A stretch of 64,000 bases of DNA from Eledone cirrhosa. Its lineage: Eukaryota. Positions 18,427 to 59,492 of the stretch are shown here, in pieces; positions within the stretch are counted from its first letter, which is position 1, and each line of letters opens with the position of its first letter. The position numbers and the translations under genes were made by a program. The stretch lies in NCBI GenBank assembly GCA_964016885.1, contig OZ024741.1, positions 128,526,001 to 128,590,000 of the forward strand. The letters are read 5' to 3'. The notes under the pieces were generated by a model. It was not told where the DNA came from, searched no databases, and saw nothing but the letters and a program-made list of their open reading frames with translations.

Positions 18427-18627
18427 ACGAAGGAAGTGTGGTAATGAACCAGATGGACCATAACGCACCAGAGTACTCAATACTTAGGGTAGTAGAGTGG
18501 GTAATAGGAAAATGTTTCACCCCGACGGCAGAGCTCAAGCCGTTTCGACGGCTATTTCTGGACTCTGCGTCCAGAAATAGCCGTCGAAACGGCTTGAGCT
18601 CTGCCGTCGGGGTTAAACATTTTCCTA
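18427..18627. mobile_element. Palindromic PLE-like element, family A
   Basis: Near-perfect inverted arms 18505-18562 and 18569-18627 plus a ~78 nt tail, inside (TA)n; contains GAAA-cggc(ttgagctct)gccg-TC. Confidence 0.85.
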
Positions 18628-19016
18628 TATATATATATATATATATATATATATATATATATATATATATATATATATAAACTACAGTTGTAACTTGCAA
18701 CGTAGCCACGAACAAGGACATATATTCTCTTGACCTTCCTTCCCTTGATCCAACGGAATATCCAGGATGTGATAAGTGGAAGGAGAGAGGGCTATACCAG
18801 CAATGGGAGGATACTTTCTCAGAACGCTCTGACGACTTTGCCAAATTGACCGAGACATTGGCAAATATTCTATTTACAACATAACTTGACTAACGAACTG
18901 AAAAGAACTCAATACTTGCAGTAGACAAACATTTGTTATGACTATTAGCTGAGGTCACATTTATTGATGTATATTTTAAGTTGGAGAATCACATTGAAAC
19001 GTTGTATGTCTATTTA

Positions 19017-19567
19017 GATGGGTGGAGGCGGGTGGACTAGTTGTAAAGGGGGTGGATTTACGATCATAATGTCATGGGTTTCATTACTGGACTGGATTGT
19101 ATGTTGTATTCTTGAGCAAAACACTTCATTTCACCTTACTCCAGGATACTCAGCTGAAAGTGAAATGAGTACCAACAGTAACTGGGAGGTTTTTACCCTG
19201 CGTTGGACTGGTGTTCTGTCCAGAGGTGACTCTTGTACGCTCAGACGCTTCACGCCACGGAAACGGGGGGTAAGCACCGGCATGTTGAGCCTTCGTGCTC
19301 CAGACAGACTTTAACCCTCAGATAGACTTGGTGTCCAGTCCAGGGAAGGGGGAATCTTGTACTTTTAGTCGCTTCACGCCACGGAAACCCGGATAAGAAC
19401 CAGCCTATTGAGCCTCCGGGCTCCAGACAGACTTTAACCCTGAGATAGACAGGTGTCCAGTCCAGGAGAGGGGGGAATCTTGTACTTTTAGTCGCTTCAC
19501 ACCAGGGAAACCGGGATAAGAACTGGCCTGATAAGCTCCTGAGCTCAAGACAGACTTTAGACTTAGA
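19017..19567 (+). mobile_element. SINE family 2 with triplicated ~120 bp 3' region
   Basis: Homologous to 22720-22993; unit gcttcacgccacggaaacc...cagacagacttta occurs three times. Confidence 0.8.
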
Positions 19568-20024
19568 CAAGAAAAGCCGTATAATACGAATATGGAATAA
19601 ACAAATTAGTCTCGACAAATAAAATTAATCATTTGCGTATCTGATACTTGAACGAAAAAATAAGCTTTAGTCACAAATCTATATAACAATGACTGTTATG
19701 CCAAAATATCTCATATGTAAATATATATGATTTACTTGTCAAGAGTGAATGAGATAAATTGCTTATTCCACATTTACACTGCACAGCTTTCCTCATTGCC
19801 CGTGTTTGCGTGGACGTGTGTCAGTGTGTGTGTATGTTTGTTTGTGTTTGTGTGTATGTGTATATGTATATGTGTGTGGGGGGGGGGGGCAGAGTACAAA
19901 GTTAATAAATACATCGATAATACATTTCTCTGCAGCAGAGACTATTGAGAGTGCTCAATAACCACACAATTGAATAACTGAAGAACTTTATTTAATTATT
20001 AAATGAAATAATATATGATAATGA

Positions 20025-20640
20025 ATTCTAATTTAGGCTCAAGGCCAGCAATTTGTGGAGAAAGGGAAGTCGATAAAATCGATCACAGTCATTGATTGGG
20101 AGTGATTTATTTTATCAATCTCAGTCATATGAACGGCAACATTGACCTCGGTGGGATTTGACCCCGCTACGAAGTACTTTTGTCCAGCGTTCAAACGAGT
20201 CTGTCAGAAATAATTATTCGAATAATTGTTTCTAATTTAGGAACAAAGCCCACAAATTTCAGGGTGGGGGGGGGTCGATAAAATCAACCCCAGTGCATTA
20301 CTATCACTTTATTTTATTGGCCCCGTAAGGATGAAAGGCGAAGCTAACCTCGGTGGGATTTAACCTCACCGTAACCAAATACTACAAAGCATTTTGTCCA
20401 GTGCACTAACGAGTCTGTCAGAAATAATTATTTGAATAATGGTTTCTGATTTAGGCATAAGGCCAGAAATTTTGGGGGAGGGGAAAGTCGATTAAATCGA
20501 CCCCAGTGTGTTACTTGTACTTTATTTTATCGACCCCGTAAGGATGAAAGGCAAAGCTAACCTGGAATTTAACCTCACCGTAACCAAATACATAGCATTT
20601 TGTCCACTGCACTAACGAGTCCGTCAGAAATAATTATTTG
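20025..20640 (-). mobile_element. Three tandem partial SINE family 1 copies
   Basis: ~200 bp unit ending gagtctgtcagaaataattatt repeated three times. Confidence 0.75.
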
Positions 20641-20883
20641 AATAATAGCACGAGTTTCTATATATAGAATAGCTTACTGTCAACAATAGAATCCAAATGA
20701 AATTAAGCAATACATAGAGAAAAACATAATACGTATACATTACTAGGGACATAGGCCTTTGTTTCTGTAGTACTTTCTTGTAAAAAATAGCCCACGCGTT
20801 TTAGGTGCCTTCAAGCGGAAAGTAAAAGTCTTATTTATTATATTTGTTTTTCCGAATACACCTGTTTATTTATATTCGTCCAT

Positions 20884-21265
20884 GCCAATAGCAAGACACG
20901 AGTTGTCGTAAATAGATTTGAAACTTTACAATTTTTCGAAGACATAGCCTCTAGACTGTAAATGATTCTTTACGAGAGTAGTTTCAGATAAATAATTTAA
21001 CTCTTTTGATACCAACCAGGCTAAAACTGACTCTGGTTCTATTAAACGAAACCACACCACTCATTTTAAATGGTTCCTTTGTCAATTTAAATCATTCAGC
21101 ATAATTTTATATAAGGACCCTATGCTAAATTACTATCTTAGTAATTAAATAATTAACATATTTTATGTATTCTTGTATTCCATTACCAATACAGTCGTGG
21201 AGCTGGGGCCAGATTTAAATAATTATCAAACAAATACAATGGGGGTGTCATTATGAGGTTGTTTC
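20884..21265 (+). repeat. Second copy of the unclassified 380 bp repeat
   Basis: See 15445-15830. Confidence 0.85.
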
Positions 21266-21835
21266 TACGAAATAACATTTCGATTTTGTTTATGATAACT
21301 GTTGCCTTCGGGTGCATTAGGAAATATAGACCTCTGGCTGATGACGTGTACCGAACGTGTGTGGTAGAAACACAGGCCTGTGTTCCAGAGTAATGTACAC
21401 ATATTTCGTGTGTTCGTGTATGTGAATATATATATATATATATATATATATATATATATATATATATATATATATATATATATATTGCAAGCGATTAGCG
21501 AACTCTAGACTCACCTGATCAACGAAACAATTGTCAGTACTTTAAATAAAGCCCTTATTGTACAGCCAACCATGTTACTCTTCATTCTTTAACTATATAT
21601 ATATATATATATATATATATATTTCGTTTCTGAATTTGTTTAGCAAGATTCTTTATCTGAAATCGTGTGTTGAAACCGATATTGTTATACTTTGGGAGGG
21701 TCATGTTGCCAATAAGAAACACACGCACCAGTTGCTTTCACTTCAATTTATTATAATAAATTTATAATAAATTTAAAGATTTATAAATTTCTGGTTGGTT
21801 GGTTGGTTCCACAACCAGATAGTTGTTTATATATT

Positions 21836-57309: not shown

Positions 57310-57506
57310 CAGACCTGTCAACTCTCCCCGTCCGACGGGGAAATTTGTAATAGCCTTTGGGGCTGGGTGAGAGATGTCTTCTCTAGTGAAAATGAGTATA
57401 GGTTTTATTATGTAAAATTTCCCCCATTTTGCTTTATTTCTTCTCGTTTTGGGACACTTTTTTTCATGGTACTCCCCGTTTGGGTTTTTAGATGTTGGCA
57501 GGTCTA
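57310..57506. mobile_element. hAT-type MITE
   Basis: TIR cagacctgtcaac/gttggcaggtcta; 8 bp TSD catgtatc/tatgtatc. Confidence 0.75.
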
Positions 57507-57680
57507 TATGTATCTGTCTTCAACAAAACTGTGACGGTCGTTTTCAATAATAAAGCGTTCTAAATCTACTTGGAAATTCTATTACTGTCAGTCATTGGAA
57601 TGAGGTTTACTGGGTGGGGAGGGGGTTAAAGATCATATTTTAGATAGATTTCTTTTTAAATACTGATTTGATATATAACG

Positions 57681-58081
57681 GATTCTGATTTAGGTAAAAC
57701 AAAGACCAAAGGATTTGGGGGTGGGGGAAGGAGGTAAAGGTGGATTAAATCCACCCCAATACGTTATTGGGTACTTATTTCATCGATCCTGTAAGCAGTG
57801 CCGGATTTACCATTGTTCTTAGGTCTGCTTAAGCACAGGGCCCCGTTCACCAGAGAGGGGAGGGGCGTCTTCCTGTCAACAATTTCTTTTACCTCCTTCA
57901 GGGCCCAAATAAGGGGCCTCATAACTTAACTAGCACAGGGCCTCATTTGATCCTAAATCTGGCACTGCTTGTAAGGATGAAAGGCAAAGTTAACCTCGGC
58001 GGCATTTGAACGTAAAGAGCCGTAACTATATGCAGCAACGCATGTTGTCCGACGCTCTACCGATACTTCCAAGCCACCGCC
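57681..58081 (-). mobile_element. SINE family 1 interrupted by a MITE
   Basis: Body resumes at gtaaggatgaaaggc after the insertion. Confidence 0.8.
57796..57967. mobile_element. hAT-type MITE
   Basis: TIR cagtgccggattta/taaatctggcactg; 8 bp TSD cctgtaag/cttgtaag. Confidence 0.85.
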
Positions 58082-58872
58082 TTTGATTTAATACATAATG
58101 TTAACTTTAATTTTCAATTTTTGCAACTTTTGCAAAATTTAAGAAATTCATAGTTAGTTGCCAGTAAAATTAGTTATCGTGATGATAGTCTATAAGGTTT
58201 TTAGTGTAATAAAGTACTTCGATGGTTAAATTGAATTTTAAAAAAATCTTAGTGTTTTTGAAATGTTGAATTTTTCAATGTTATCTAATTTTTGTAGAAT
58301 ATTGGTAAATATCGGTGTCTGATATTGTCTATATATACAATTATCATACATAGGTATGGTAATTGTATGTATAGTTTAAAGGCTTTAAAATTATGGTAAA
58401 TCTATATACATATATATATATATATATGTGTGTGTGTGTGTGTGTGTGTGTGTGTATATGTGTATGTATATGTGTGTATATATATATATATACATGATAT
58501 ATTCATATATATACTCATGTACACACACACACACACACATACACACACACACACACACACACACACACACACACACACACACACACACACACATATATAT
58601 ATATATATATATATATATATATATATATATATATATATATAATATAGATATATACACATACATTTGCAAATACTAAATCTTAAATCACACATACGTGCAT
58701 CATTTTACTCACTTGCGCACAATAATTCAGCAAACTATAGAAAGGTATACACATACACACATACTTACCTTCAGATACACACACATACATTTCACACACA
58801 AGTAGCTGTATATACAAACAGGAACACGTGTTCGCTGTATCATATGACGCCTATATTATACACATACATTCA

Positions 58873-59258
58873 TACATGGTGGCTGCCAACTCGTTTTCGA
58901 GTACGGCCACTACTTTATATCCATGTAGGAGAACCCCTACCGATGCGCTGAACGAGTGTGACTTTTTAGTCCGGCCAGCAGCTTGAAAACTCTGGTACAA
59001 ACACTACACTTGTGACAATTATTGACACATAGTGCTGGGCCCATGGTACCATGTGACGACAAGTGCAGAGAGATCTCCAGATATAAAGCAATGCCTGTGC
59101 CGTGAAGCTTTTATAGTGATCAAAGGCACTGCACAAAGCCAGTCCCACTCTCTTAACCAAGATGATATTTACCAAAAAGAAGAACAAGTCAACATCATTG
59201 GATACCATCATACATGATGGCTGCCCCCTCGTTATCGAGTATGGCCATTGCACGAGGA
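58873..59258 (-). mobile_element. RTE-like LINE 3' end remnants
   Basis: Minus strand [19 protein letters not shown] zinc-finger remnant; terminal motif tggcc(g/a)tactcga(a/t)aacgag..ggcagcca occurs twice. Confidence 0.55.
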
Positions 59259-59317
59259 GAAAAAAAAAAAAATTAATCAATAAATAAAAAAATAAAAAAA
59301 AATATATATATATATAT

Positions 59318-59492
59318 AACGAAGGAAATGGGGTAAGGAACCAGGTGGACCATAACGCACCAAAGTACTCAATACTTAGGGTAGTAGAGTGGGTAATAGG
59401 AACAAGTAAGACCCCGACGGCTGAGCTCAAGCCGTTTCGAATTAGCCGTCGAAACGGGTTGAACTCAACCGTCGGGGTCTTACTTGTTCCTA
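59318..59492. mobile_element. Palindromic family A element
   Basis: Same layout as 18427, in (TA)n. Confidence 0.85.

Follow-up and report, generated by a model that had tools for sequence, protein, structure and literature searches.

Penelope-like elements (PLEs) are retrotransposons in which inverted, truncated pseudo-long terminal repeats (pLTRs) are found together with a tail of 30-40 nt on one side only (PMC3846280, PMC8557442; here and below, statements about cited papers refer to the passages of them that were covered). How the inverted pLTRs and the one-sided tail are formed is declared an unsolved question in PMC8557442 and has been answered only in part in vitro, where with Poseidon PAc (2024) both strands were cut and extended and two RNA start sites bounded the tail (PMC11167929). 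Truncated PLEs with opposed minimal hammerheads 100-700 bp apart were reported in 2014 (PMC4209133), and in the Hydra clade, which includes an octopus family, 26 of the 27 listed families are noted as (TA)n-inserting (PMC8557442). Here we analyse short asymmetric palindromes, named family A, in a 64-kb stretch of Eledone cirrhosa DNA (contig OZ024741.1, 128,526,001 to 128,590,000, forward strand), which we call the window and which is AT-rich, microsatellite-dense DNA of animal type.

The anatomy of these palindromes is the known inverted pLTR plus tail structure of PLEs; family A works like those elements and is short of formal membership by an open reading frame (ORF) with PLE-type reverse transcriptase and GIY-YIG endonuclease. 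Its copies are very likely the truncated 3' ends of a PLE, pLTR and tail included, and the source element probably belonged to the Hydra clade. As a whole, we think it probable that family A consists of insertions of an endonuclease-bearing PLE with extreme 5' truncation, each holding part of the pLTR plus the tail, most plausibly from the Hydra clade and made by the mechanism proposed below. Hydra is the likeliest clade because a tail hairpin is present in Hydra consensi, because insertion is into (TA)n and because the clade has an octopus member; the (TA)n preference itself is not diagnostic of Hydra since it is common to Naiad and Neptune. Protein marks of the clade are its place in the reverse transcriptase phylogeny and an endonuclease that lacks CCHH and has a CxCX5C linker.

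Anatomy of the family A insertions

Family A loci were collected by BLAST within the window with the copy at 18427 as query. Sense runs toward the long-arm end, the reference copy 47773-47911 is numbered 1-139, and the family letters B-G are labels coined in the present analysis. An inverted-repeat finder was uninformative, its output being dominated by (TA)n, runs of which of at least 9 nt occupy 13.7% of the window. The search returned 13 loci, which occupy 2.9% of the window at a density of about one per 5 kb; 12 of them lie within 18427-59492. The initial annotation had given 13 copies as palindromes; the number stands, but only ten loci have two inverted arms (the nine sites listed there and 17396), while 23021, 30601 and 42224 have a long arm alone. 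The loci and the landmarks of the reference copy are as follows, with 5' starts (long arm, short arm) taken from a script.

18426-18628, minus strand (locus 18427): two arms, near-symmetric, both reaching the 5' limit; 5-nt centre; arms 59/60 identical; starts 1, 2
30042-30192, minus strand: two arms, shortened tail; arm identity 41/47; starts 12, 17
38515-38675, minus strand (38516): two arms; about 44 nt of 5' sequence on the short arm, absent from the long arm; starts 50, 1
41199-41343, minus strand (41200): two arms, the short one not followed by a (TA)n tract; starts 14, 39
44194-44298, minus strand (44195): inverted junction, the long arm being tail end only; starts 101, 1
47719-47911, plus strand (47721): two arms, reference copy; arms 43/43 identical; starts 1, 19
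49495-49613, plus strand (49497): two arms, both beginning at the predicted hammerhead cut; 1-nt centre; starts 42, 42
49868-50018, minus strand (49869): two arms, the short one 13-14 nt; starts 5, 49
59318-59493, minus strand (59319): two arms, 2-nt overlap at the joint, short arm extending further 5'; starts 17, 7
17396-17574, minus strand: divergent relative lying before 18427, two arms, same short-arm end, with a family B arm next in sense; starts 20, 16 plus 29 unaligned nt
23020-23112, minus strand (23021): long arm only, head-to-head with family C
30601-30712, plus strand: long arm only, fused to a family B ribozyme
42212-42290, minus strand (42224): long arm only, decayed
47791-47819, plus strand: reference copy, 3' half of a type I hammerhead motif by descriptor (GAAAC, stem III with palindromic loop, GUC)
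47813/47814, plus strand: reference copy, predicted hammerhead cut, followed by the presumed 3' strand of stem I
47828-47833, plus strand: reference copy, short-arm end and pLTR-tail boundary, TCCTAT
47834-47911, plus strand: reference copy, tail of 78 nt, long arm only
47839-47862, plus strand: reference copy, bulged hairpin of the tail (stems of 4 bp and 3-6 bp on either side of a 2-nt bulge), common to families B, D, F and G

By eye, the start at 38516 lies nearer 45 and that at 41200 nearer 20.

All ten short arms stop at reference position 61. The end reads TCCTAT at 9/9 of the listed sites, as had been described, and TTCATAT at the aligned position in 17396. Family A has TAT sites at positions 61, 85 and 105, and under equal use the arrival of 10/10 short arms at one of the three has p ~5e-5. 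The long arm was said to end typically in CTTCGTT, and it does so exactly in 6/13 loci and with a one-base variant in 3/13, stopping earlier in 4/13; position 139 is the common end in 9/13. The 78 nt between positions 61 and 139 make up the tail. Tracts of (TA)n of at least 9 nt lie on both flanks in 8/9 listed loci, in keeping with the usual flank first reported, the short side of 41200 having 4 nt only, and every outer end overlaps TA by 1-3 nt.

The 5' ends spread across about 100 nt. The centre had been described as different in every copy, and we find 10/10 distinct centres and 0/45 locus pairs with a common one, which agrees with the proposal that each family A palindrome is built anew at insertion; later deletion could also vary centres. 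Leaving 17396 aside, junctions vary between a short overlap and a filler of 11 nt; the fillers are unlike at every junction. Compared with the long arm, the short arm reaches further 5' in four of the ten loci, less far in four and equally far in two (17396 judged by eye). Five of the 23 arms stop at positions 1-2, with at most one base in common beyond, so the variation of the centre has a 5' bound. The site at 44298 does not hold as a palindrome: it is an inverted junction whose arms have no common sequence.

A common source variant and a hairpin in the tail

The arms of each family A locus derive from the same source variant. Over their last 13 nt, identity is 0.99 within loci versus 0.77 between loci, and this within-locus match is reached in 3/200,000 permutations, bearing out the statement that sub-family bases match on both arms. 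The comparison of intra- with inter-locus arm identity that had been suggested as a check gives, within the window, the own long arm as best match in 9/9 short arms when ties are included (strictly best in 4/9). Over the whole arm overlap, with starts set by hand, 287/307 columns are identical within loci versus 0.64-0.87 between, and the 20 mismatched columns argue against a read fold-back artefact. Across loci, similarity of short arms tracks similarity of tails (Mantel rho 0.65, 93/20,000; 0.36, 700/20,000 without the divergent 17396), which means that gene conversion between arms cannot be its cause. The arms of 44195 do not overlap, yet by eye they belong to the same sub-family.

The tail hairpin begins 5 nt after the short-arm end of family A; in it a 2-nt bulge separates four invariant pairs from an upper stem. 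A descriptor of it has 19 matches in the window versus 0.02 in shuffles, an excess that is partly circular because the descriptor was built from these same sequences. In 13 hand-picked copies 93% of cells are paired and 4/8 pairs show changes on both sides; the covariation score is reached in 0/500 shuffles and the pair count in 43/500. Among the 17 two-armed loci that contain the hairpin (families A, B, D, F and G), 15 have a short arm that stops 2-8 nt short of it, the two exceptions being family B loci. By eye, the published consensi Hydra-2_Amil and Hydra-2_Ajap have the hairpin after the ribozyme and Hydra-1_Crog has it loosely; it is absent from the other three of the six new Hydra consensi, two of which end about 30 nt past the ribozyme (PMC8557442). 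The passages covered of that paper do not describe it. No description of the hairpin or of mini-palindrome junction statistics was found in the full-text literature or in a paper on octopus repeats (PMC13282606), as far as these were covered, and Repbase, Dfam, the subscription PLE reviews of 2005-2006 or unseen supplements may hold one; the stop of the short arm before an RNA hairpin of several families looks unreported. The sub-family-variable bases of family A can also fold into the loop of a further hairpin, placed immediately ahead of the short-arm end.

The hammerhead half of family A, whose predicted cut follows position 41, accounts for 10 of the 23 matches to such a half in the window (shuffles: mean 4.4). 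Complete type I motifs number ten by descriptor (shuffles: mean 0.1, maximum 1), nine of them in families B, E, F and G and none in family A. Family A stem III in isolation folds no better than shuffles (z -0.33), whole arms are as stable as shuffles (z ~0), and Rfam scans by E-value yielded nothing beyond sub-threshold matches to hairpins and microsatellites (in one scan, among the 150 listed of 661 matches). Arms start at the predicted cut in two cases by script and in 4/23 by eye (binomial p 0.009), and at the 5' limit in 5/23 (binomial p 0.001). We do not claim in-vivo ribozyme cleavage as the cause of these clustered 5' ends, because arms of the same locus are non-independent, the end at 23021 may come from family C, and arms stalled at stem III would end at this point too. 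Two side observations concern the motif: an alternative 6-bp hairpin at 47784-47799 (plus strand) encloses GAAA in its loop and would be a competitor of the ribozyme fold, and a lone complete hammerhead motif at 2380-2424 (plus strand) has a GAAACGG start that resembles a minimal form of family A stem III.

No family A copy reaches 5' of the ribozyme region, and the window holds no long copy, in which the direct (tandem) pLTR that precedes a full-length PLE body would show. We do not claim the open sense frame of family A as coding, since by eye 30042 and 30601 have an insertion of 2 nt that disrupts it. Exact words of family A had no occurrence in matching context among the occurrences viewed in the Craig supplement (PMC8557442). 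Family A was rejected as a non-LTR retrozyme (LTR, long terminal repeat), a kind of element defined as a tandem series in which every unit bears a complete type I hammerhead (bioRxiv 10.64898/2026.07.22.740005): family A has no tandem units and no complete motif.

Other palindrome families in the window

Families B, C, D, E, F and G have the same asymmetric palindrome build as family A.

21622-22535, minus strand: family E, 5'-truncated PLE in (TA)n; GIY-YIG frame at 22083-22535, then a 3' region with a complete hammerhead motif
13338-13970, minus strand: asymmetric palindrome of family E with a tail on a single arm; arms identical at 226/226
17241-17373, 30479-30605, 36302-36543, 44427-44611, 49655-49820, 50620-50808, 56632-56829: family B
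38274, 47622, 52798: family B, single arms
12503-12860, 23107-23350: family C, motif resembling a hammerhead, its stem II region very long and its stem III palindromic (by eye)
61391-61760, 44633-44908, 51934-52378, 54440-54690, 50900-51171: families D, F and G, asymmetric palindromes with tail hairpin

Family E ties the palindrome build to PLEs because its palindrome at 13338-13970 matches the 3' region downstream of the GIY-YIG frame (Pfam E 2e-4). This palindrome is recent, given the identity of its arms, and family E is without the bulged tail hairpin. The closest relative of one endonuclease fragment of the window is a named Octopus bimaculoides protein (57% identity). A pattern scan of seven long relatives of the family E endonuclease found the linker motif in six and YxDD in five, in the order YxDD, CX2-5CxxC linker, endonuclease, which is the layout given for Neptune and Nematis (PMC8557442). 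In three of the long relatives Pfam detected no reverse transcriptase, and the PDB search returned prefoldin matches only. Family E is a truncated Neptune/Nematis-like PLE and, unlike family A, has evidence of the PLE-type reverse transcriptase and GIY-YIG combination.

Family B, which has a complete hammerhead with a Hydra-type core and sub-threshold microRNA matches in an Rfam scan, reverses the family A pattern: one centre recurs in three loci and the short-arm end varies. The hammerhead-like motif of family C was missed by the descriptor and by Rfam. Arm identity in families D, F and G is up to 99%. Near the family D palindrome, with (TA)n between, an open frame at 61066-61350 (plus strand) looks by eye like a Hydra-clade reverse transcriptase thumb; the searches found no relative of it. 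At 44064-44960 and 49495-50018 multiple PLE-type families lie in successive insertions into one (TA)n tract, and further small palindromes outside families A-G occur at 7116-7231, 42722-42898 and 58329-58374.

The window also holds long minisatellite or microsatellite arrays (42-nt, 32-34-nt, ATAC, AT) at 23691-24473, 32221-32826, 38918-40104 and 13967-15225. Broken non-LTR retrotransposon frames, at 2853-4890 (plus strand), 24847-25604 with 27669-28662 (minus strand) and 59808-60710 (minus strand), show an RVT_1 match, a zf-RVT match and a C-terminus with C2H2 fingers that we take to be RTE-like.

Formation of the palindromes and comparison with known systems

We lean towards two separate primings behind each family A insertion. 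The element's protein would, judging from PLE biochemistry, cut both strands of a (TA)n tract, after which complementary DNA (cDNA) would be primed twice, by one target end where the tail ends and by the other at the TAT that precedes the hairpin by 5 nt. Both primings would use the 1-3 nt of pairing to (TA)n that the observed ends allow. The two cDNAs, copied from the same source variant, would stop independently within about 60 nt, often perhaps at structure in the hammerhead region, and their free ends could then be joined head-to-head through the 0-2 nt overlaps or few filler bases seen at the junctions. A probable role of the hairpin is to position the reverse transcriptase and to set the inner priming site. 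Two primings explain all centres most simply because independent truncation covers all ten loci without a second event, including 44195 and the four loci with the longer short arm. The earlier suggestion of two priming sites is thus the simplest reading and fits the in-vitro PLE data (PMC11167929), although fold-back has also been proposed (PMC3846280).

Several points weigh against this account or against the assignment to PLEs. PAc primes at RNA sites non-homologous to the target, whereas all ends here overlap TA (PMC11167929), and the tail is 78 nt versus the published 30-40 nt. Three of the four loci with the longer short arm (38516, 44195 and 59319) show by eye 2-5-nt direct repeats beside the gaps, which would fit later deletion, and family B has an identical centre at 30568, 44468 and 49678 that looks fold-back-like. 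The 5' ribozyme core CUGANGA is absent by descriptor from all 13 family A copies, Rfam gives no match at gathering score in the window and no hammerhead, no ORF is linked to any of the 13 copies, and the open sense frame used as a query found no longer relative. The comparison of the hairpin with Hydra consensi was made by eye only and is non-quantified and unaligned. Finally, 2/13 loci are inter-family chimeras: 30601 switches from A to B at a common GAAAC and 23021 joins A to C over a common 7-nt word, a pattern suggestive of template switches from one RNA to another or of rearrangement at a later time. The derivation from 'one RNA' put forward at the outset stands only as regards the source variant; that both arms come from a single RNA molecule is possible, but we doubt it.

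An origin from PLEs by a single priming is unlikely, if less so than the other alternatives. Here the tail-end cDNA would fold back, be copied as far as the hairpin and pair with (TA)n there, the fixed TAT being a stop and the loci with the longer short arm being later palindrome deletions. Self-priming has been proposed for PLE inverted junctions (PMC3846280), it would yield same-variant arms automatically, and the recurrent family B centre has the appearance of a 2-4-bp fold-back with a 4-nt loop; the direct repeats mentioned above would also suit it. Fold-back nevertheless requires a second event in 4/10 loci (in 44195, loss of the full overlap), a centre of 1 nt as in 49497 leaves too little room for a loop, and two start sites are seen in vitro (PMC11167929). 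A palindromic master copy for each sub-family, moved whole by retrotransposition or transposition with centres that decay separately, is much less likely again: it accounts for the matched arms, for the family B centre common to three loci and for the one 5' limit common to 5/23 family A arms, but no locus pair shares a centre even at 98-100% arm identity, and fillers differ at each junction.

We consider a miniature inverted-repeat transposable element (MITE) of a TA-targeting DNA transposon extremely improbable. Short length, inverted repeats, TA flanks and high density (13 loci, 2.9%) recall such elements, but the ends are not mutual inverted repeats, one side has 78 extra nt, the interior is non-homogeneous with 10/10 centres different, and 5'-truncated single-arm copies occur. 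The ribozyme half, the (TA)n target, the Hydra-like hairpin and the same build in the GIY-YIG-linked family E uphold the initial annotation in preferring the PLE structure to a MITE. An assembly or library fold-back artefact is hardly credible, since inverted repeats between long (TA)n tracts do assemble poorly but the arms within a locus differ by substitutions, the short-arm end is fixed relative to the element and five families have the same hairpin geometry.

Returning to two primings, we speculate further that the bulged hairpin is a conserved reverse transcriptase recognition or boundary element of Hydra-clade PLEs that fixes the second priming site a few bases upstream. Two-ended target-primed reverse transcription would then proceed at times on two RNAs (A/B, A/C), and arms starting at the cut would record in-vivo cleavage. 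This full proposal is tentative and rather unlikely to hold in every part; if true, mini-palindromes would be thousands of natural read-outs of PLE inverted pLTR formation. The family A insertions present all three junctions in one read, which makes two priming and fold-back separable by counting, and the tail hairpin is a concrete RNA element for mutation in a PLE assay. Such copies risk confusion with MITEs or microRNA hairpins.

L1 twin priming yields an inverted 5' part from two primers that use the same transcript, and 44195 has the same non-overlapping form. The inner site of L1 is variable and its arms scarcely overlap, whereas family A has a fixed site and an overlap of up to 60 nt. 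With Hydra-clade PLEs family A shares the (TA)n target and, as a 3' half only, a candidate hammerhead near the 3' end (PMC8557442, Craig et al. 2021), and an inverted 5'-truncated copy at the 5' end, as in family A, is noted for Penelope-13_HM; family A differs in its longer stem III and in having no linked ORF and no 5' ribozyme core, and it is not Hydra-1_Obim, whose 3' end is dissimilar by eye (PMC8557442). The head-to-head inverted truncated copy and the extension at one end are those of canonical PLEs (PMC3846280, PMC8557442), but insertions here measure 100-200 nt and neither arm is as long as one pLTR, and the target-site duplication is unreadable in (TA)n. Family A fits the minimal hammerheads of truncated PLEs in its palindromic loop 3, C11.1 and C15.2-G16.2, unlike them keeping the 3' half only; their junctions are not mapped there (PMC4209133). 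The start sites of PAc lie at an AC-rich stem-loop within the ORF and have no target homology, whereas in family A there is the 1-3-nt (TA)n overlap and an inner end just 5' of the hairpin; PAc and, on the reading proposed here, family A are alike in two reverse transcription starts that bound the tail near a stem-loop, at an AT-rich target (PMC11167929).

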